Assembly (NCBI GenBank): GCA_041746255.1
Contig: JBGTHM010000012.1
Span: 1 to 28,994 of the forward strand
DNA from: Fibrobacteria bacterium
Lineage (GTDB): Bacteria; Fibrobacterota; Fibrobacteria; UBA11236
Reading direction: 5' to 3'
Length of the DNA stretch: 28,994 nucleotides
The notes beneath the pieces were generated by a model. That model worked only from the letters and a program-made list of their open reading frames with translations. It was not told the DNA's origin and searched no databases. Made by a program: the position numbers and the translations under genes. Of this stretch, positions 1 through 9,602 are shown piece after piece (position 1 is the stretch's first letter; every line of letters starts with the position of its first letter).

Positions 1-277
1 TCCAACCGATTCTCACTGTCATTTTCTACAAACAGAAAATGAACGGGAACCGGTTCGGGAGTGGCTTAAAGGTCTGCGAATTGGAGACAAAAAGGAAATT
101 GGAAAAAGACCTTTGGGAGGTTCGGTCAAATTTAAAGGATGGAATTGCCAGAGTTATTTTTACAGTCGATGGAAATATTATGGTCCTTCTGCATGGTTTT
201 GTAAAAAAATATCAAGCTACCCCAAAGGGGAGTTAGATGCGGCACGAGATAGAAAGAGGACGTATTATGGCAAATAA
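1..277 (+). pseudogene. Disrupted type II toxin, HigB/RelE-like (DUF891/Gp49 type); 5' end outside window
   Basis: Segments in alternating frames join into a typical toxin: QPILTVIFYK (frame 3), TENEREPVREWLKGLRIGDKKEIG (frame 2), KLEKDLWEVRSNLKDGIARVIFTVDGNIMVLLHGFVKKYQATPKG (frame 3), ELDAARDRKRTYYGK* (frame 2, TAA 275-277). The stop overlaps the antitoxin start. Confidence 0.85.
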
Positions 278-548
278 ACATAAAGGCAGTGATTTTGATG
301 CCTTCCTGGAGGAGGAAGGGCTCTTGGCAGAGGCCGAAGCGGTAGCGGCCAAAAGAATCTTAGCGCACCAGTTTGAATTGGCTATGAAAAAAAAGCACCT
401 ATCCAAGGTTTCTATGGCCAAAAGGATGCAAACAAGTCGTTCCGCTTTGGATAGGCTTCTCGACCCCGAAAATTCCTCTGTTACTCTACAAACATTGGAA
501 AAGGCGGCAATTGTACTAGGAAAAAAAATCAGAATCAGCCTAGTATAA
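267..548 (+). CDS. XRE-family HTH antitoxin (HigA-like)
   Basis: ATG 267 with GAGGA RBS at 256-260; MANKHKGSDFDAFLEEEG...MAKRMQTSRSALDRLLDPENSSVTLQTLEKAA is typical of antitoxins paired with DUF891 toxins. Confidence 0.88.
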   Translation: MANKHKGSDFDAFLEEEGLLAEAEAVAAKRILAHQFELAMKKKHLSKVSMAKRMQTSRSALDRLLDPENSSVTLQTLEKAAIVLGKKIRISLV

Positions 549-576
549 GATTCTCAATGCTGAAACCTCCCTGGCG

Positions 577-605
577 CGCTAACTAAATATAATAATGCGT
601 TATGT
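577..605 (+). mobile_element. Collapsed attC-like remnant
   Basis: CGCTAAC (577-583) and GTTATGT (599-605) lie only 15 bp apart. GTTATGTGAC (599-608) is an 8/10 complement of ATCCCATAAC (1360-1369) after the next gene. Confidence 0.45.
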
Positions 606-713
606 GACATTCGACCTCGAATTGTAGCCTTCTGGCTAAAAGACCCTAAGGCAATGGGCATTGAATTTCTAATTTATGGGGTGAAAAATAAAACTGAGCG
701 AAAAGGCGTAAGA

Positions 714-1328
714 ATGAATCGGAAAGAGCACTGGGAAAAAGTCTACAATACTAAATCCCATAAAGAGGTAAGCTGGTTCACCGAACACGTGACTGTGGCG
801 CTTGAATTAATAAGCCAAACCAAGATCAATAAAGACCATTCAATCATCGATGTCGGAGGCGGGGCTTCCACCTTGGCTGACGATTTGATAAGACAGGGGT
901 TCCAGGATATTACGGTGATCGATATTTCTGGCAAAGCGTTAGAAATTGCCAAGTCCCGTCTTGGACATGAGGCCAGTAAAGTTACTTGGATTGAATCCGA
1001 TATTTTGGAGTCCGATTTCAATCATCGTGAATACGATTTATGGCATGACCGTGCTGTCTTCCATTTTTTAACCACTGAACTGGAACGAAATCAGTATAAG
1101 GAAAAAATGGACAAGCATTTGATTAAGGGCGGCTTCGCCATCCTAAGTATTTTTGCCGATGATGGGCCTGAAAAATGCAGTGGTTTGACAATTCGAAGGC
1201 ATGGAAGCTCGGATCTCGAACAGTTTATGGGATCCGGGTATGATATGGTTTATCATTCGCGAACCACCCATCAAACTCCATCCAAGGCTGATCAGAAATT
1301 CATAAATATGATTTTCAATAAGAAGTAA
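714..1328 (+). CDS. Class I SAM-dependent methyltransferase
   Basis: MNRKEHWEKVY start, motif I IIDVGGGAS, VIDIS, YDLWHDRAVFHFL, GPEKCSGL. Start placed at ATG 714 rather than 654. Confidence 0.88.
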   Translation: MNRKEHWEKVYNTKSHKEVSWFTEHVTVALELISQTKINKDHSIIDVGGGASTLADDLIRQGFQDITVIDISGKALEIAKSRLGHEASKVTWIESDILESDFNHREYDLWHDRAVFHFLTTELERNQYKEKMDKHLIKGGFAILSIFADDGPEKCSGLTIRRHGSSDLEQFMGSGYDMVYHSRTTHQTPSKADQKFINMIFNKK

Positions 1329-1359
1329 AGCACCCCATGAATTACAACGAGGTTGAACG

Positions 1360-1392
1360 ATCCCATAACAACGCCTTATAAGCAATGCCCCC
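1360..1392 (+). mobile_element. Left half of attC-like site
   Basis: CCCATAAC-AACGCC-TTATAAGCAATGCCC follows the methyltransferase; no matching right arm found downstream. Confidence 0.4.
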
Positions 1393-1518
1393 ACACAAGA
1401 CCAATTACAAATTTCCAAAAACCGCCCCTCCAAGAAAAAGCCTCCCGATAAACAAGGCCGGTATGTTAAATTATTTCTGATTTAAAGAACTTGGCCGACA
1501 TTCCAGGCTAGAAATAAT

Positions 1519-1794
1519 GGAGTTATTAGATGGAATGCGCCCAGTTTTTACCTCATGGGGGAGGATAAAATCACATTTAATTTAAGTTCGCCGAAAAAGG
1601 TTCAACTAGTCTTTCATCGAAGCGCAAAAGTTAAAGAGTTACCCAAAAATAAACTAATCGATGATTCGGAGAAATTGTTAAAATGGTCAACGAATGTCCG
1701 GGCAGTTGCTGCCTTCGAAGATTTGGACAGCATTACCAAATCCAAAAAATATTTGACCAGTTTAATTAAAAAATGGCTTTCTGCGGCAACCTAA
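1519..1794 (+). pseudogene. 5'-truncated DUF1801 (YdhG-like) gene
   Basis: In-frame GVIRWNAPSFYLMGEDKITFNL...LVFHRSAKVK matches the DUF1801 core. The frame is closed upstream by TAA at 1483 with no start codon before 1555, so the N-terminus is missing. Confidence 0.75.
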
Positions 1795-1815
1795 CCGATC
1801 TTTACAGAGTTACGT
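1789..1815 (+). mobile_element. Collapsed attC site (27 bp)
   Basis: ACCTAAC (1789-1795, RYYYAAC, contains the DUF1801 stop), 13 bp, then GTTACGT (1809-1815); L boxes absent. Confidence 0.62.
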
Positions 1816-1852
1816 CGCACCGATCGATAAATCGGATGACAAAGGAGATTTT

Positions 1853-2578
1853 ATGTCGGACAAGTCGGTGAGCCAAATAGCAAATGAGGCAGTGGAGATG
1901 GAGCGCCGAACGTTACAGTTCGGGGGCGCGCTGGCCGTGATAGGTGGTCTTGGGTATTTCTTCACCTTGCTGTTGCATGGCGATTTGCCAGATCAGTCGA
2001 CTGAGATCGCCCTTGAGCACATAGCAGGGCGGCCTGAGTGGCGTGCACTTAAACTTGCCCTCATTGCTTCCATATTTTGCTGGATCGGCGCTTTCACAAT
2101 ACTGGTCCGGTCGTTTCCAAGAAGCCTCAGTAACCTAATCGGTCGGTGGGCCGTCTCAATCTCAACTATCGGCGCAGCGATTGTCGTGGTCGAGTACGCG
2201 ATAATTGGGCATGCATTAAAGGAAGTGGCGGACACATGGGCCATGGCGCCGACGACCGACCAAGAGGCGATTCTTCCGATGGCAGATGTAATGCTTGCCA
2301 TTACGGGAGGGCTATTCCACAGCTTTGTCGCCTGGATGCTCGGATTACCTTACATCCTCCTGGGAGTGGCGATCGTCTTGGGAAGAGCCTACCCACGGTG
2401 GCTAGGGTGGATAGCTGTGGTCGCCGGCTCTGGAGCATTGCTGGCAGGGACTACCCGTTTTTTAGGAATTGGGCTTGTGCCGTACCCGCTTCTATATGGT
2501 GGATTTGTTATACCCCTCTGTATCTGGCTGACAGCGATGGGCGCACTTATGTGGCGCAGTGCTCGACACGCGACCTAA
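1853..2578 (+). CDS. DUF4386-like integral membrane protein (cassette gene)
   Basis: About six hydrophobic segments, YPRWLGWIAVVAG motif, AAGGAG RBS; stop codon lies inside ACCTAAC. Confidence 0.72.
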   Translation: MSDKSVSQIANEAVEMERRTLQFGGALAVIGGLGYFFTLLLHGDLPDQSTEIALEHIAGRPEWRALKLALIASIFCWIGAFTILVRSFPRSLSNLIGRWAVSISTIGAAIVVVEYAIIGHALKEVADTWAMAPTTDQEAILPMADVMLAITGGLFHSFVAWMLGLPYILLGVAIVLGRAYPRWLGWIAVVAGSGALLAGTTRFLGIGLVPYPLLYGGFVIPLCIWLTAMGALMWRSARHAT

Positions 2579-2595
2579 CAACGGTATGTAACTGC
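2570..2595 (+). mobile_element. Inverse core site and left remnant of attC
   Basis: GCGACCTAAC (2570-2579) is a 9/10 complement of GTTACGTCGC (1809-1818) at the start of the same cassette. Confidence 0.62.
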
Positions 2596-2761
2596 AGCCG
2601 CATCGGCAACCTTGGGCAACATTGGCCACGGAAATTGGTAATGTGAACAGGGAATTGAAATTATTATTTTGGAGGCGAAATAAAATTCGGATCAACCCCT
2701 TGTTATTCGGAGTAAGTAAGCGAAATTCCAAACCCCTTGAAATAATTAAGGTGAAGAAGCA

Positions 2762-3124
2762 ATGAATGGAACATTATGGGTAGAACTTGTGGGCGATTTG
2801 ATTGTTGCCCGAGTTCGAGGGGAGCCTTCAATAGATCTCATAAAGGATTGTCATGAGCAAGTGTTACTTTTGGCCAGAGAAAGTGGCCGGAACAAGATCT
2901 TGTACGATACTTTGGAAATGGAGCCTCCTCCAGTTAGTGTGCCAATGGCACAGTGGAAGTTGAACGAAGAGAGTGGTTTGTTACCGATCAAAAGAGCTAT
3001 TGTAGTGCCAACTAGTAAACTGGCCTACTTGGCCCGGCTTGCGTTTGGAGATGGCGACTACAAGGTTTTCTATAGCGACCTAACAGCTGCCGTTAATTGG
3101 CTAAGTGATTCGAATTCTCAATAG
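2762..3124 (+). CDS. STAS/SEC14 (SpoIIAA-like) domain protein
   Basis: 120 aa with pattern KILYDT...KRAIVV...YKVFYSDLTAAVNWL typical of SpoIIAA-like proteins. Confidence 0.65.
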   Translation: MNGTLWVELVGDLIVARVRGEPSIDLIKDCHEQVLLLARESGRNKILYDTLEMEPPPVSVPMAQWKLNEESGLLPIKRAIVVPTSKLAYLARLAFGDGDYKVFYSDLTAAVNWLSDSNSQ

Positions 3125-3250
3125 AGCCGGTCTCAAAAGTCCTTCTGGCGTCGCCGGGCTGCGAGGTAGCGCTACGCATCCTGCTTCACGCCCTTCGGGT
3201 CTACCTCCGGTAGACGATCTCCGCCCATCCCTGGGCTCCGATTCGCCCCC
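3124..3250. repeat. GC-rich multi-hairpin element (REP/MITE-like remnant)
   Basis: Palindrome GTAGCGCTAC (3166-3175) and hairpins GCCCTTCGGGT (3190-3200), GTCTACC-TCC-GGTAGAC (3199-3215), GCCCA-TCCC-TGGGC (3223-3236). Begins with GAGCCGGTCTCAAAAGT at the TAG stop. Confidence 0.45.
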
Positions 3251-3333
3251 CTTTGTCGGCCTGCATCGCGATAAAATGCCGAGGCCCCCATCGCCCAACA
3301 AAGGTTTGTACGCAACTCGGCCCCATAAATATT

Positions 3334-3368
3334 CACATATTGATTTTGAATAAATATGTGTCTAATGT
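3334..3368 (+). promoter_or_regulatory. Palindromic operator overlapping a putative promoter of the metF-like gene
   Basis: CACATATTGATT-ttg-AATAAATATGTG (3334-3360, 11/12 inverted repeat); TTGATT (3340-3345), 17 bp, TAATGT (3363-3368). Confidence 0.45.
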
Positions 3369-3396
3369 TTAATGCTTTCCGGAGGTTCGAAAAAAA

Positions 3397-4140
3397 ATGG
3401 CTCTTTCGCTTGAACTTGTGCCACGAGACGAAGACAGCTTTTCTGAACAGTTAAAGGCGCTTAGCAAATTCAGACATCACTTCTCTCACCTGAATATTCC
3501 GGATATAACCCGCTTTAAGCTCCGAAGCTGGGAAGCATGCGCCTTTTCAAGAAATGTCATCCCGAACAGCATACCTCACATTCGCGCCATTGATTTCGAT
3601 AAGCATGACCCTGCAGCGCTGTTCTCGATTCTAAGGAAGTACAGATTTGAAGAGATACTGGTAGTTAAAGGTGATGTTCCCCAAGATATGTCCAGGAAAG
3701 TATTTCCTACCAGCTCAATTGATTTGATTCGCGTCATTAAAAAAGAATTACCAGAGATTAAGGTATATGCCGCCTTTGATCCCTACAGAACTGGAATCCA
3801 GGCTGAAATGAGATATGTGGATGAAAAAATCGAAGCCGGATGCGATGGATTCTTTACCCAGCCATTTTTTGACATACGGCTTCTTGATATTTATTCAGAA
3901 CTTCTGTGCGGGAAAAAGGTTTTCTGGGGCATAAGCCCGGTTACTTCAGAAAAATCCATGGCCTATTGGATCGCGACGAACAGAGCCTATTTTCCGAAGG
4001 ACTTTTTTCCTTCCCTCGATTGGAATATTCAATTTTTTAAAAAAGCAAAGGCTCATTGCGATTCTCAGCACTTCGATATGTACTTGATGCCTATCAAAGT
4101 TTCGGTCGAAAAATACCTATCAGGCCTTTTTGCAAATTAA
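3397..4140 (+). CDS. metF: Methylenetetrahydrofolate reductase family protein (short MetF-like)
   Basis: LSLELVP, NIPD, IPHIRAID, ILVVKGD, KIEAGCDGFFTQPFFD are MTHFR barrel motifs. Confidence 0.8.
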   Translation: MALSLELVPRDEDSFSEQLKALSKFRHHFSHLNIPDITRFKLRSWEACAFSRNVIPNSIPHIRAIDFDKHDPAALFSILRKYRFEEILVVKGDVPQDMSRKVFPTSSIDLIRVIKKELPEIKVYAAFDPYRTGIQAEMRYVDEKIEAGCDGFFTQPFFDIRLLDIYSELLCGKKVFWGISPVTSEKSMAYWIATNRAYFPKDFFPSLDWNIQFFKKAKAHCDSQHFDMYLMPIKVSVEKYLSGLFAN

Positions 4141-4286
4141 TGCGCACCAAACCGGCTCCAGCGGTTTAATCCCTTAAACGGAATTCGCGCATTTACTCCC
4201 CAAATAACCCGCGCCAAGCAGGGCTCCGCCTTACATTCCTCCCAGGTTACCGGATAAATCCGGAAGGATAAGAAAGTGGAGGTATT

Positions 4287-6023
4287 ATGAGAACTGCTTT
4301 TGTTTTCACAGCATTCATGATCAGCGCCAGCGGGTTCGCAGCCGGCAGCCGGGTGATGGTCGGTACGGCCGCATCCTTCCTGGACGCCCTTGTCTCGGAA
4401 AACACGGCCGCCACCCGAACCTTGTCGCTTCCGACCGGCTCGGTGGGACCGATCCGCCTTCACGCGGAGGATTTCCACTTCGTCGACGGCGTGCTGTCCC
4501 TGGCCGGCAGGGCCGCGGAAATGGAAAACTCGGACTTCATCCTAAAGGGGAACGCCGCGGGCGTTTACGGTTGGATCGTCCTCCGTGACAGCAAGACCGC
4601 CTACGAGTACACCACCGATCCCACGGGAGCGCTCCTGGTCGAGGAGGTGCCCATCGAGAAGATCTATCCCGTCTGCGATGACCCTTCCCATGCGCCAGAC
4701 CCCATGGAGGAGGCCGTTACCCACGGGGTGGCATCCTCCTTCTCCGGCCTAGCCGGACCGGAGCCCCATATCGGGCCCTACGCCGGGCAGGATCTCTACA
4801 AACTGCAGAGCCTGCCGGGCGCCAGGAAGGTGCTCTGGCTGGATATCTCCCGGGTGATGGACGGCGCCACGCCCCTCCACATGTCCAAAGAGGAGATGTA
4901 CAAGATGTGGCAAATCCACGCTTCCGCCTTCTCCATGTTCGCTGTGAACGTGACCACCGACAGGGACGTCTACAATTCCGCCGGCGTGACAAATTCCGGC
5001 ATCAACCGGTTCGTGAACGTCTCCGGCCGGTCCTTCTGTCCCGTCAATGCCTTCGGGACCACCCGCTACTGCCAGACCCAGCTCCAACGGAGACCCATGA
5101 CCCATTACCAGTATGGCAAGACCGCCGTCCATGAGACCGGCCACCTGATGGGCCTCCGTCATGACGGTAACGCCTCCACCAGCTATTTCAGCGGCTTCTC
5201 CAACCACCAATGGTCCCCGATCATGGGCAACAACCTCTGCTGCCGTACGTGGAACGAACCCGCTATCCAGTGGAGCAAGGGAGAGTACACCGGAGCGAAC
5301 AACAAGCAGGACGACCTGTCCATCATCGCCCGGAACCTGCCCTTCAAGGCGAACCCCATCAAGGCGCCCGTGCCGCTTCGGGTCGAGAAAGATTCAGTCT
5401 CCCCGCTGTTGAACCGGGGACTCATCCGTAGCGAAGACGATCGGAATCAATTCACCTTCGAGGTCGGGCCCGCGGGCGGGCGCCTCAACCTCCTGGTCGA
5501 CCGCACCGAGATCCGCGGCGGGTCGGCGCTGGACATCGACGCCCGCATCCTGGACAGCGGGGGAAAGATTTTGGTTCAAAGCAATGACCAGGGGGTCCGC
5601 TCCGCCCGCTTCAGCAACGTGGCCTTATCGCCCGGGAGGTATACCCTGGTCATCGCGGGCGGTGAGGAGGGGACTCCCCTGAGAGGTTTCTCCAATTACG
5701 CCAGCATGGGCTATTATGCCATCGGAGGCCGCATCACGGGAGTGACCCCGACCCCGTCGCCGTTCCCGACCTCTGTAACGGAAAGGGCGGGCGCCGCGCC
5801 CCGGCAGATTTCACCGCGCTTTCGGAACGGTCGGCTGCACCTCGACCTGCCGTCCGGAGCCAAGGTCGGCAGCGTGGTCCTGCATTCGGCCGGCGGAGCG
5901 GTGGTCCATCGTTCCGCCGGGAGGGTCGAAGCCATCGACTTCGAGCGCATGCCCGCCGGGGTCTACCTGCTCAGCGTGGCCCTCGACGACGCGGTGGTGC
6001 GCCTGAAGGTGGTCAAGGAATAG
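4287..6023 (+). CDS. Secreted metzincin metalloprotease (M12/reprolysin-like) with PPC-like domain and T9SS-like C-terminal domain
   Basis: Signal peptide, HETGHLMGLRHD zinc motif (5130-5165), Met-turn PIMG, PPC-like LDIDARILDSGG...LSPGRYTLVI, P/T linker, C-terminus MPAGVYLLSV...LKVVKE; GGAGG RBS. Confidence 0.85.
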   Translation: MRTAFVFTAFMISASGFAAGSRVMVGTAASFLDALVSENTAATRTLSLPTGSVGPIRLHAEDFHFVDGVLSLAGRAAEMENSDFILKGNAAGVYGWIVLRDSKTAYEYTTDPTGALLVEEVPIEKIYPVCDDPSHAPDPMEEAVTHGVASSFSGLAGPEPHIGPYAGQDLYKLQSLPGARKVLWLDISRVMDGATPLHMSKEEMYKMWQIHASAFSMFAVNVTTDRDVYNSAGVTNSGINRFVNVSGRSFCPVNAFGTTRYCQTQLQRRPMTHYQYGKTAVHETGHLMGLRHDGNASTSYFSGFSNHQWSPIMGNNLCCRTWNEPAIQWSKGEYTGANNKQDDLSIIARNLPFKANPIKAPVPLRVEKDSVSPLLNRGLIRSEDDRNQFTFEVGPAGGRLNLLVDRTEIRGGSALDIDARILDSGGKILVQSNDQGVRSARFSNVALSPGRYTLVIAGGEEGTPLRGFSNYASMGYYAIGGRITGVTPTPSPFPTSVTERAGAAPRQISPRFRNGRLHLDLPSGAKVGSVVLHSAGGAVVHRSAGRVEAIDFERMPAGVYLLSVALDDAVVRLKVVKE

Positions 6024-6347
6024 AACTTTTGTCGGTTGATATCCTAAAATAGTCCTGACCCCGGCTTATACCTATTCCCGCCGGTTGCCCGAAAAGGGCC
6101 CCCTTTACCGGGTGTTCCAGCAGCATTTACCCACCTTGAACGACTTAAAGAAAAAGGTATTTATTCTCTGAACGGCTAAACAAAAAATCGAGAATCGTGA
6201 GTCAACTAAGGCAACCAAAAACACAACTGATGAGTGAAACCAAAGTTGAGGAGTGGGAATGACAAGCTCACACCTATGTTTCGTAAGTCGAAAAAATACC
6301 AATTATACGAATCGGCTCAATGATAGGTTAGACGCCAAGGAGACATC

Positions 6348-6824
6348 ATGACAGTCAAGCGTATGGACAACGTCGGCATCGTAGTGGAAGACATCGATGC
6401 CGCCGTTGAGTTCTTCACCGAACTCGGCCTTGCCCTCGAAGGCCGCATGCCCATCGAAGGCGAATGGGCCGGCCGTGTCACCGGAGTACGCGGCCAGCGC
6501 GTCGAGATCGCCATGATGCGCACTCCCGACGGCCACGGTCGCATCGAGCTCTCGCGCTTCAATACCCCCGCCATCGTGTCCGATCACCGCTCAGCCCCCG
6601 TGAACTCGTTGGGATACCTGCGCGTCATGTTCGCCGTCGAGGACATCGACGACACCCTCGCCCGCCTCAGCAGGCTAGGTGCGACGGTAGTCGATGAAGT
6701 CGTCAATTACGAAGACATCTACCGGCTCTGCTACATCCGGGGTCCTGAAGGAATTCTCATCGGGATCGCCCAACAACTCGGGCAGCAGACCTCCCGAGAG
6801 AATCCCGTGGAACGTAAGCGTTGA
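6348..6824 (+). CDS. VOC/glyoxalase family protein (cassette gene)
   Basis: MDNVGIVVED...FFTELGL...RIELSRF...LCYIRGPEGILI; preceded by core site GTTAGAC (6327-6333) and AAGGAG RBS. Confidence 0.9.
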   Translation: MTVKRMDNVGIVVEDIDAAVEFFTELGLALEGRMPIEGEWAGRVTGVRGQRVEIAMMRTPDGHGRIELSRFNTPAIVSDHRSAPVNSLGYLRVMFAVEDIDDTLARLSRLGATVVDEVVNYEDIYRLCYIRGPEGILIGIAQQLGQQTSRENPVERKR

Positions 6825-6840
6825 GAATTGAGGCGTTGGC

Positions 6841-6904
6841 GTCTTACAACCGGTTGCAGCGGACGGTCCGCTGCGTGGCCCGCCCCTGAATCAGGACATT
6901 AGGC
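6841..6904 (+). mobile_element. attC site, 64 bp, mutated in both core sites
   Basis: GTCTTAC (expected GTCTAAC)...TTGCAGCGG...CCCCTGAA...ATTAGGC (expected GTTAGGC). TTGGCGTCTTAC (6836-6847) is an 11/12 complement of GTTAGACGCCAA (6327-6338). Confidence 0.82.
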
Positions 6905-6933
6905 GTCATCACTAAACCACAAGGAGACTCAGT

Positions 6934-7530
6934 ATGTCGAAGGTTATCGCGATCATGTCCATGTCACTTGATGGCTACGTAGCCGACGCCAACGATGGCG
7001 TGGCCGAAGTGTTCGACTGGTACTTCACCTCGGGAGACGTCGAGATCGACACCGGGGGAGCCGATTCAATGACATTCAAGGTGTCCGAGCCGAGCGCAAG
7101 GCACATTCGCGGTCTTACGGCTGAACTTGGTGCGGTGCTCACCGGTCGACGAACTTTCGAAGTCGCCCAGGGCTGGGGTGGTAATCACGCCTGGGGACCG
7201 GCTTTCGTACTTTCCCATCACGTCCCTGACGGATGGCCCCGCCCGAACTCGAACGTCCACTTCGTCACCGACGGCATCGAAAGCGCCGTGAAGCAAGCCA
7301 AAGCTGCCGCCGCCGGGAAGTCGGTAGGGGTCCACGGCGCTGACACTATTCAGCAGCTCTTGAATGCTGGCATCCTCGACGAAATTAGCGTGGACATCGC
7401 GGCGGTTCTCCTTGGCTCTGGAGTTCGATTCTTTGACCACCTCGTCGGCACGCCGTCCGTGCTTGGCAACCCAACGGTGATTCCGGGCGTCGGCGTTACA
7501 CACCTGCGCTACCCGGTACGCAAGATGTAG
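6934..7530 (+). CDS. Dihydrofolate reductase-fold (RibD C-terminal domain) protein (cassette gene)
   Basis: MSMSLDGYVAD, LTGRRTFE, VHGADTIQQLLNAGILDEI, AVLLGSGVRFF, VTHLRY; AAGGAG RBS. Confidence 0.9.
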   Translation: MSKVIAIMSMSLDGYVADANDGVAEVFDWYFTSGDVEIDTGGADSMTFKVSEPSARHIRGLTAELGAVLTGRRTFEVAQGWGGNHAWGPAFVLSHHVPDGWPRPNSNVHFVTDGIESAVKQAKAAAAGKSVGVHGADTIQQLLNAGILDEISVDIAAVLLGSGVRFFDHLVGTPSVLGNPTVIPGVGVTHLRYPVRKM

Positions 7531-7557
7531 ACCATCCTTCCTTACCCTCACAGTCAC

Positions 7558-7735
7558 ACCCAACACATCGCTCAAGCCGACATCGCTTCGCTGGGCGGAA
7601 TTCTCACTCGCATTTGCCTGCACATCGGTTTAAGGGAGTTTTCCCAGGCCGGAGGATTTGACAGGCATACTTGAAATTCCCAATTTGGTTACTTCGATAT
7701 TAAGCTGGGATATGGGATGTCGGCTTAATGATATA
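7558..7735 (+). mobile_element. attC-like site with very long central region; R' core not recognisable
   Basis: ACCCAAC (7558-7564), then TCAAGCCGACATC (7572-7584) pairing with GATGTCGGCTTAA (7716-7728), showing the extra C of an L''/L' pair. Confidence 0.62.
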
Positions 7736-7755
7736 CCAGGCTTCAATAACGGGGC

Positions 7756-8412
7756 ATGAAAATGGCACTAGTACGCGTTGCGAGCTTCACCATCTCGATT
7801 GATGGATACGGAGCAGGTCCGAATCAAAGCATCGACAATCCACTCGGCGTCGGCGGACAGGAGATGCACCAGTGGGTATTCCCGACACGCACGTTGCAGC
7901 GCAACTTGTTCGGCAAGGAGGACGGCACGACCGGGGTTGACGATGACTTCGCCGCGCGTGGCTTCCAGAATATCGGAGCTTGGATCCTGGGAAGGAATAT
8001 GTTCGGACCCGTGCGTGGTCCCTGGCCGGACATGAACTGGAAAGGCTGGTGGGGGAACAACCCGCCCTATCACGTTCCCGTATTCGTCTTGACGCATCAT
8101 GCGCGTCCACCCCTCGAGATGGAAGGCAACACGACGTTCCACTTCATTACGGGAGGTATTCGCGAGGCGCTAGACCGTGCACGCGAGGCGGCCGCCGGAC
8201 GGGACGTGCGGATCGGCGGTGGGCCGAATACGATCCAGCAGTATCTTCGTGAGGGCCTCATTGATGAAATGCACTTAGCTATCGCACCGGTCCTGCTCGG
8301 TGGAGGAGAACTGCTGTTCGGAGGGCTTGACTTGCGGGCTCTGGGATACGAGTGCGTTGAATCCGCAGCCTCGGATAAGGCCACGCACGTGGTGCTACGC
8401 CGCCGCCACTGA
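7756..8412 (+). CDS. Dihydrofolate reductase-fold (RibD C-terminal domain) protein
   Basis: FTISIDGYGAGP, ILGRNMFGP, WWGNNPPYHVPVFVLTHH, VRIGGGPNTIQQYLREGLIDEMHLAIAPVLLGGG. Confidence 0.9.
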   Translation: MKMALVRVASFTISIDGYGAGPNQSIDNPLGVGGQEMHQWVFPTRTLQRNLFGKEDGTTGVDDDFAARGFQNIGAWILGRNMFGPVRGPWPDMNWKGWWGNNPPYHVPVFVLTHHARPPLEMEGNTTFHFITGGIREALDRAREAAAGRDVRIGGGPNTIQQYLREGLIDEMHLAIAPVLLGGGELLFGGLDLRALGYECVESAASDKATHVVLRRRH

Positions 8413-8681
8413 ATGCTACGAGACGTCATCCTTTTGAAATGAATTGGTTTTGAAATAGGCAGAAACTTTTAGGTTAAATCGGCTTTCAATTTGCTTGGTT
8501 AGTCGTATTTTTTTGCCTTAAAGCATATTTTGATGGTTTTTTGGGGAATCCGCCCCCTCACCCTCCCAAGAAGTACCCGAAGCTTATCTTGGCCCGGAAA
8601 TCGTTACTTTTTCTGGGACTCGACGTCTAAACAATGCGGACTGGGATAAAGAATTTTAATTTTCATAAATAGTATTTACCC

Positions 8682-9602
8682 GTGAAACCAAAAACTGTTC
8701 AAAAAATGCCTTTTATAAAAAGTTCGAATTCAGCCGTATACGATCATCTTGAGAGGGTATTCAATACCATTCAATTTATTGAAAAAAACCTGCTGGAAAC
8801 CCTGAACATCGGAACCTTGGCCAAAACCGCCTGCTACGCTCCGTTTCATTACCAAAGAGTTTTCAGGGAAATCACCGGACTCAACCTCATTGAATATGTC
8901 CGAAAAAGAAAACTTACCTTTGCCGCGCATTCGATACTTTCACATTCCGGCAATATGACGGAGATCGGTTGCAAATTGGGTTTTGAAACACAATCCTCTT
9001 TCGGCAGGGCGTTTAAAAGCCAGTATGGCGTCTCCCCCCTTTTGTATAAGGCGAATGGAAAAAATATCTGGTATAACGACACCGAAGTCCTGAAGGATCG
9101 GCAAATCGAATATATGAGTACCGGTGGCGTAACTTTATTGCCTGAGATCGTATTCGAGCCAAGAAAAGTCCTATATGGAATAAAATTCGAACAATTCTCC
9201 GGTCAAAAAACCAACCGGGAAAAAAGGCACGAGCTGAGGGCGTTGTTCGAATCGTTCAACTTGCGGATCGACAAACTCTACCAGGTTGAATTCAGCAACG
9301 ACTTTGATGTCCTCAGCAAAAAAGCCATAGGCTATATCGCGGTAAATTTTGAAAAGAGGTTTCTACCGGAAGCCTTGCTCAACCAGCTGCACGAGTTTGA
9401 GATTCCGGAAGGAACGGTCGCAAGGTTTACCCGAAGAATAACGGACGATTATTGGGCCCAACGCTATATTTTTGAAAACTGGACACGGAAAACCGATCAC
9501 TTACCCACCTATGCGTTCGTCTATTATGAAAAGCAATTAGGGAGCGGGCCGGTTACGACCGATACTATTTCCATTCCAATTCAATTGAGGTTAACGCGGT
9601 GA
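8682..9602 (+). CDS. AraC-family regulator with N-terminal HTH and C-terminal GyrI-like domain
   Basis: FIEKNL...LAKTACYAPFHYQRVFREITG...LGFETQSSFGRAFKSQYGVSP; C-terminal EIPEGTVARF...YIFENW. Start may be ATG 8706. Confidence 0.85.
   Translation: MKPKTVQKMPFIKSSNSAVYDHLERVFNTIQFIEKNLLETLNIGTLAKTACYAPFHYQRVFREITGLNLIEYVRKRKLTFAAHSILSHSGNMTEIGCKLGFETQSSFGRAFKSQYGVSPLLYKANGKNIWYNDTEVLKDRQIEYMSTGGVTLLPEIVFEPRKVLYGIKFEQFSGQKTNREKRHELRALFESFNLRIDKLYQVEFSNDFDVLSKKAIGYIAVNFEKRFLPEALLNQLHEFEIPEGTVARFTRRITDDYWAQRYIFENWTRKTDHLPTYAFVYYEKQLGSGPVTTDTISIPIQLRLTR

Follow-up and report, generated by a model that had tools for sequence, protein, structure and literature searches.

Clusters of attC sites, or single attC sites, without an integron-integrase (CALIN and SALIN, respectively) have been attributed to rearrangement or secondary insertion (PMC4889954), and domestication through deletion of attC by slippage has been considered (10.1101/2022.09.11.507474). 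Canonical attC sites are 57–141 bp long (PMC5371416), integron erosion is described in Xanthomonas (PMC5371416; 10.1101/2025.06.18.660453), and a multistem candidate attC corresponds to the DUF1874 motif (PMC5737381). A literature search, with most subscription journals outside it, returned nothing on the present locus or on att sites of 250 bp. This locus lies in the window, the entire 28,994-nucleotide contig C12 (JBGTHM010000012.1) of a Fibrobacteria bacterium whose genome (G000) comprises 4.59 Mb in 130 contigs. A sequence-only reading had described 577–8412 as one integron cassette array, broken at every recognisable attC, that was being locked into the chromosome. The analysis points instead, with a probability of roughly four in five, to two clusters of former cassettes (1–3315 and 6327–8412) in which all seven recognisable sites are damaged and which were likely stranded away from a recombinase and then neutrally eroded; they are predicted to be non-excisable. 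The locus is a CALIN-like remnant worn by deletion and point mutation, of a kind already known.

Cassette ends and intact homologues

All real genes within 1–9600 are on the + strand, in agreement with the sequence-only reading, in the order toxin–antitoxin, methyltransferase, DUF1801 fragment, DUF4386, SpoIIAA-like, MTHFR, M12-like peptidase, VOC, two RibD C-terminal genes and AraC, followed by rluD, and the GC content per gene spans 38–63%. The complementary gene ends proposed earlier are present at 599–608/1360–1369 (8/10), 1809–1818/2570–2579 (9/10), 6327–6338/6836–6847 (11/12) and, more weakly, 6898–6908/7554–7564 (7/11), and a fifth pair absent from that proposal lies at 2611–2617/3293–3299. 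GTT-anchored 10-mer complementarity was compared with 2000 dinucleotide shuffles, of which 11, 0 and 0 reached the pairs at 599/1369, 1809/2579 and 6327/6847, respectively; the pair at 6898/7564 falls outside this test because its G is mutated. Across the genome, just 4 of 2669 long open reading frames (ORFs) have pairs of at least 8/10, and the long ORFs of the window belong to that set. A 5' core with a complementary 3' inverse core is present for three genes beyond the level of shuffles and background, and additionally at 2611/3299.

Close homologues reside in intact cassettes for the VOC, DUF4386 and first RibD C-terminal genes. The VOC cassette is identical at 531 of 578 nt (92%) to an intact cassette flanked by two attC sites (L012), and its protein relatives, 69–93% identical, come from many phyla (80 loci kept). 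A search of the G000 DNA with 6820–6930 gave no second copy. The L012 array also encodes an 88% homologue of RibD gene 1 with a 52-bit attC after it, and matches to this gene in a plasmid search were all under 60% identity. The 77% homologue of RibD gene 2 in L016 comes after a degraded attC, and the ends of the gene itself do not pair significantly (shuffle p 0.055). For DUF4386, at least three of nine metagenome loci (L147, L151 and L152) have an intact attC downstream by attC scan, and a further locus (L149) exhibits the same complementary ends, GTTAGGTCGC/GCGACCTAAC. The match to a methyltransferase paralogue on C126 begins at 598, at the core, and three distant methyltransferase homologues have no attC by eye. 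The paralogue itself (C126:13343–14079, 78% DNA identity) has the cassette start but no attC; translations of its neighbours resemble metal-efflux and cation-pump genes by eye.

The sequence-only reading would have fallen had homologues never adjoined attC sites, had 6841–6904 failed to score as an attC, or had the end pairs been no better than shuffled DNA. Homologues do adjoin attC sites, 6841–6904 scores on an attC model and three end pairs exceed the shuffles, so the cassette origin that it proposed stands on the end pairs and the intact homologous cassettes. The features of the region are collected in Table 1.

Table 1. Genes, former cassettes and junctions identified within positions 1–8412 of the window (MITE, miniature inverted-repeat transposable element; REP, repetitive extragenic palindrome; HTH, helix-turn-helix; SAM, S-adenosylmethionine)
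Feature	Positions	Strand	Basis or remark
RelE/Gp49-like (DUF891) toxin pseudogene	1–277	+	PF05973, E 5e-11; 5' end off contig
HTH antitoxin, open frame	267–548	+	HTH_26/HTH_37, weak
Junction 1: inverse-core-like CGCTAAC, 15 AT-rich bases, core GTTATGT	577–605	+	weakly attI-like
Class I SAM methyltransferase cassette (ORF 654 or 714 to 1328)	599–1374	+	PF13649; ends 8/10
Junction 2: giant-family site collapsed to ~20 bp	1363–1382	+	left-end weight matrix
DUF1801 pseudogene, 5' part gone	1537–1794	+	PF08818 positions 28–85, E 0.004, below cut-off
Junction 3: ACCTAAC, 13 bases, GTTACGT	1789–1815	+	hairpin arm missing
DUF4386 membrane-protein cassette (ORF 1853–2578), imported type	1809–2610	+	GC 55%; homologues
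Junction 4: internally deleted attC, core G to C, then apparent giant-family cassette start	2573–2617	+	right-end matrix
SpoIIAA-like cassette (ORF 2762–3124), apparent giant-family ends	2611–3299	+	PF11964, weak
Partial copy of small dispersed repeat (MITE- or REP-like) at stop codon	3120–3273	.	copies on C14, C67 and in G001
Junction 5: giant-family left end, few bases from resident DNA; closes left cluster	3293–3315	+	left-end matrix
Non-cassette stretch: MTHFR-family gene (3397–4140), M12-like metallopeptidase (4287–6023)	3319–6326	+	no end pairs
VOC/glyoxalase cassette (ORF 6348–6824)	6327–6898	+	intact core, attC absent upstream
Junction 6: canonical 64-bp attC, AAC and GTT both mutated	6841–6904	+	29–31 bits
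RibD C-terminal (DHFR-like) cassette 1 (ORF 6934–7530)	6898–7735	+	PF01872
Junction 7: attC of ~185 bp with a long loop, L arms retained, core GTT replaced	7558–7741	+	perfect arms
RibD C-terminal gene 2, probably the final cassette, without remaining attC	7756–8412	+	PF01872

Damaged junctions and the giant sites of the host

In none of the seven junctions are AAC and GTT both unaltered and the R and L boxes paired in a bottom-strand hairpin, and the claim that every recognisable attC is broken holds for all seven. That attC models would miss most of these sites was supported with two models. Model R1 was built from 18 attC sites including a homologue of 6841–6904, and model R2 from 19 sites without the direct homologues L011:3494 and L012:3494; the L132 row of alignment A3 is in the wrong strand, which can only weaken R2. 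Junction 6 scored 31.2 bits on R1 and 29.4 bits (E 3.8e-5) on R2 and no other window junction passed either model, leaving one of seven found. IntegronFinder has a size limit of 200 bp for these sites.

Junction 6 contains eight window-specific changes, and its predicted bottom-strand fold reaches -13.3 kcal/mol with the R boxes unpaired, compared with -28.0 kcal/mol for the L012 site. A weaker attC-like match also occurs at 6768–6826 (17.9 bits, E 0.03), within the final 18 codons of the VOC gene, and since many VOC homologues match only to about residue 144–150, this tail may represent translation that runs on into an older attC. In a VOC cassette of a Nitrospirae locus (L046), the core triplets are changed complementarily, to GCT at the start and AGC at the end, possibly a variant crossover site. 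At junction 7 the arms 7574–7584/7716–7726 form a perfect 11-nt match 131 nt apart and pair in the predicted fold, with a whole-site z of just -0.9. Junction 3 folds at -2 kcal/mol (z -0.9), and no hairpin is predicted for junction 1. The damage is of several kinds, as had been claimed; the site at 1363 is a collapsed one and has no long loop, and the long-loop site is 7558–7741.

The ends at 1367 and 3297, and apparently that at 2611, derive from branched sites of 248–276 bp that belong to the host family, here called giant sites. In weight matrices built from 23 copies, the best left ends of the window are 1367 and 3297 and the best right end is 2611, with scores matched by 3e-6 (junction 2), 2e-5 (junction 5) and 5e-6 (junction 4, where there is no fold) of genome positions. 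The flanks match too, so that giant-family ends and cassette starts are found together: 1383–1440 is the stretch that in relatives comes after the GTTATATG of giant sites, 2649–2706 matches contig C168 of the same-genus genome G001, and 3273–3300 matches cassette ends preceding giant sites at C100, L199 and L205. Because the 60 bases following it stand after the GTTATATG of long sites in relatives, the core of junction 2 is read as a G-to-C change. A GTTAAAT at 1465, considered as the close of a long-loop attC, was dropped as 1375–1440 is a cassette start in relatives. The final 8 bases of junction 4 resemble the canonical right end of L152 as well as a giant-family end, and the covarying branched body of ~250 bp gave no profile match on C12. 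The SpoIIAA-like gene has no homologue in 31 family genomes.

Elsewhere in G000, 15 profile matches at E<0.1 represent long sites with attC-like ends, three of them complete with both cores (248, 250 and 263 bp), one core-mutated and 11 partial; C23:79378–79627 is an intact giant site. Giant sites are present in 16 of 30 family genomes (G033 left out) and in none of seven other genomes of the order. An alignment of 14 copies, which are kin so that its rows are not independent, has 59 consensus pairs, 42 of them with double-sided change. A tyrosine recombinase without the IntI-specific insert (I2-less) is encoded on C18 upstream of a giant site and in the same direction, an arrangement repeated in three of five relatives checked (G013, G003 and G004). 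The only integron integrase above the TIGR02249 cut-off is the IntI of C56 (371 bits, full length, no stops), with a candidate attI ~500 bp upstream of its gene and near the contig end; IntI over the cut-off is also found in 12 of 30 relatives. Besides this IntI, G000 keeps a few intact sites on other contigs, and canonical attC of 59–60 bp share rows with giant sites in the same orientation on C31 and on C168 of G001.

These arrangements suggest, at somewhat less than even odds, that the left cluster is the fossil of a mixed array, in which cassettes with ordinary attC, imported from other phyla, stood in the same rows as cassettes with the branched sites of 248–276 bp associated with the I2-less recombinase. 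Were this true, two recombinases, one a canonical IntI and the other non-canonical, would use the same two dissimilar kinds of site or recombine across them, and giant sites would finish as 20-bp scars invisible to site models. Should each enzyme act on both kinds of site, this little-studied lineage would gain another entry to the common pool of cassettes. The giant-site system is better studied on contigs that keep it intact.

The 3' end of a group II intron interrupts a giant site in reverse orientation (L190:3339–3410, on C103 of G000), with similar text at C127; attC-targeting group IIC introns are a precedent. One repeat terminates C56 and C18 at their right ends and C37 at its left end, interrupting a giant site at the same position on C18 and C37 and lying ~170 bp past the candidate attI on C56. 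It looks like the end of an insertion sequence, perhaps an IS256-like one, though PF00872 matched only C95 and C102. Four dispersed 171-bp elements (C49:32435–32605, C35:28125–28295, C19:11016–11186 and C125:20308–20478) and a fifth of 73 bp (C19:37981–38053) in G000 are MITE-like: their terminal inverted repeats are long and perfect, and the ends resemble the inverse core and core of attC.

Decay and its alternatives

The cassettes would have been inserted at the crossover between G and TT by a tyrosine recombinase, either the C56 IntI or the C18 I2-less enzyme, some imported with ordinary attC of 60–185 bp and others with the branched sites of the host family. Rearrangement or secondary-site insertion may then have stranded them, after which replication slippage would likely have removed hairpins, so that only a few bases now separate inverse core from core, while other sites gathered point changes. 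The same deletion bias would act in the toxin and DUF1801 genes as at the sites. Relative to its homologue L157, the toxin gene has lost 62 nt internally, between near-direct repeats, as well as single bases, and the DUF1801 fragment lacks a start codon and has an in-frame stop upstream (no DUF1801 relative was found in viral contigs). The cassettes are predicted not to excise, with junction 1 a possible exception because of its 9/15 identity to the candidate host attI and because truncated-attI sites can recombine (PMC12901181).

The rate of change at the VOC attC bears on whether the sites simply decayed or were inactivated because retention of the genes was favoured, which would amount to active locking and which has been raised as an idea in 10.1101/2022.09.11.507474. 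Lineage-specific changes number 8/58 in this attC compared with 5/77 at fourfold sites (p=0.24) and with 4/116 in two sister copies (p=0.02), a rate close to that of fourfold sites and above the sisters, and therefore one that fits release from selection and not acceleration. Selected domestication would explain that both AAC and GTT of this attC are mutated and that the VOC protein shows no excess of change over the sisters (8 lineage-specific residues compared with 6 and 6), but a single mutation already suffices to lock a site and five of the eight changes are C-to-T or G-to-A. Since the toxin and DUF1801 genes are moreover pseudogenes, and the only DNA match in the same-genus genome G001 is the MTHFR stretch, with no cassette gene, selected domestication is quite improbable and active locking was not borne out. 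Of the 80 VOC-homologue loci, a relic of the start survives in 24, and 7 of these have an intact attC downstream; both flanks remain in 3 of the 80. Flanks are thus commonly broken, and stranded, damaged copies of this cassette are, judging from these loci, usual in other phyla. Alternatively, some sites may still be in use, and junction 1 could be of the truncated-attI type, with the orphan cores at 1809 and 6327 serving as secondary sites for the intact IntI. Junction 1 has matching spacing to the candidate C56 attI besides its identity of 9/15, which 0.26% of 46,002 GTTR sites reach, the IntI is full length at 371 bits, and class 1 assays show recombination of truncated-attI cassettes (PMC12901181). 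However, the comparison spanned six junctions in AT-rich DNA, the attI is a mere candidate and the downstream partner sites all lack a core or hairpin, making continued use unlikely.

Uniform gene orientation would suit one continuous array at 577–8412, provided that MTHFR and the peptidase were very old cassettes that have since lost their sites, and the MTHFR gene is indeed patchy (1 of 31 family genomes), with different neighbours in G001. Neither gene has an end pair or site relic, though; 3319–6326 contains no GTT-anchored pair and the peptidase has a paralogue on C39 (40% identity). MTHFR and its upstream DNA (3319–4147) are 88% identical to C35 of G001 (91% for the gene alone), where an attC scan of 15 kb found no attC and no cassette marks are present; the G001 match to the MTHFR region begins at 3319, just past junction 5. 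The single array was therefore split, the stretch being without cassette marks, and a continuous array is very improbable. An artefact of metagenome assembly that collapsed hairpin repeats, or chance matching, is barely credible as the source of the damage: many contig ends of G000 carry giant sites, and the contigs of one run hold 98% of the words, but that run may be the source sample, scattered point changes accompany the deletions at the junctions, similar collapsed sites occur in the unrelated records L029 and L137, and chance is excluded by the results of the end pairs, weight matrices and model R2.

Several points weigh against stranding and neutral erosion of the two clusters. The toxin–antitoxin pair lacks cassette evidence from homologues (12 antitoxin homologues among 250 genomes of the phylum have no attC arm after them by eye), and junction 1, which resembles attI, may still recombine. 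The contig begins at position 1, and a recombinase may lie just upstream; no contig end of G000 overlaps the left end of the window, and on C12 no intI or attI is found next to the array, the sole IntI above the cut-off being that of C56. The junction sequences are known from metagenome assembly alone. The neutrality comparison draws on a single 58-bp site and has little power, the count over 80 loci used a short-attC model trained in part on the loci counted, some of which end early, and 4 of the 23 right-end rows of the weight matrix are out of register.

Outside the two clusters, the peptidase (4287–6023) has a GC content at third codon positions of 82%, compared with 44% for its neighbour MTHFR, and its look-alikes carry a type IX secretion system (T9SS) tail. 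It is probably a separate acquisition, and the T9SS-tail look-alikes fit the host of Fibrobacteres–Chlorobi–Bacteroidetes (FCB) appearance that had been proposed. Upstream of rluD, the same-genus genome G001 has different AT-rich DNA (L106:1–1200, on C275), and this position looks like a variable spot. Rfam returned four weak unrelated matches on the window and none on four array loci, and a promoter and terminator scan of the window found fewer sites than in shuffles.

Comparison with described systems

With its cassette ends, its homologues in intact cassettes elsewhere and its damage at every site, the locus illustrates cassette decay, a known process, clearly. With one of seven sites found here, attC models undercount cassette-derived genes. 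A modest addition beyond known decay would be that foreign ordinary cassettes and giant-site cassettes share arrays, an interleaving seen as relics in the window and as better-kept sites on C31 and on C168 of G001.

As in CALIN and SALIN (PMC4889954; 10.1101/2022.09.11.507474), the genes of the window are co-oriented and intI is not adjacent, with IntI encoded elsewhere. The window's sites are too decayed for the CALIN definition of at least two detectable attC close together with no intI near: with R1 and R2 two such sites are not found, and with one of seven passing the covariance model a two-site detection call would likely fail. In comparison with canonical attC (PMC5371416), 6841–6904 is a point-mutated 64-bp member and 7558–7741 has a recognisable inverse core, L boxes and core, whereas the core triplets of the window are mutated and three ends appear to come from branched sites of 248–276 bp, about twice the canonical range. 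Junction 1 resembles the truncated-attI cassettes blaOXA-10 and ybeA (PMC12901181) in its inverse-core-like end, short AT-rich stretch and core, but reaches only 9/15 to the candidate attI and accompanies no resistance gene. The eroding integrons of Xanthomonas (10.1101/2025.06.18.660453; PMC5371416) are likewise frozen chromosomal cassette clusters away from intI; there the integrase is often lost, whereas in the present genome the sites are broken and IntI is full length. The ends and cassette starts at 1363–1440, 2611 and 3273–3299 appear to belong to the giant branched att family with its I2-less recombinase, from which the window differs in that the body of ~240 bp is gone from every copy and that contig C12 encodes no recombinase.

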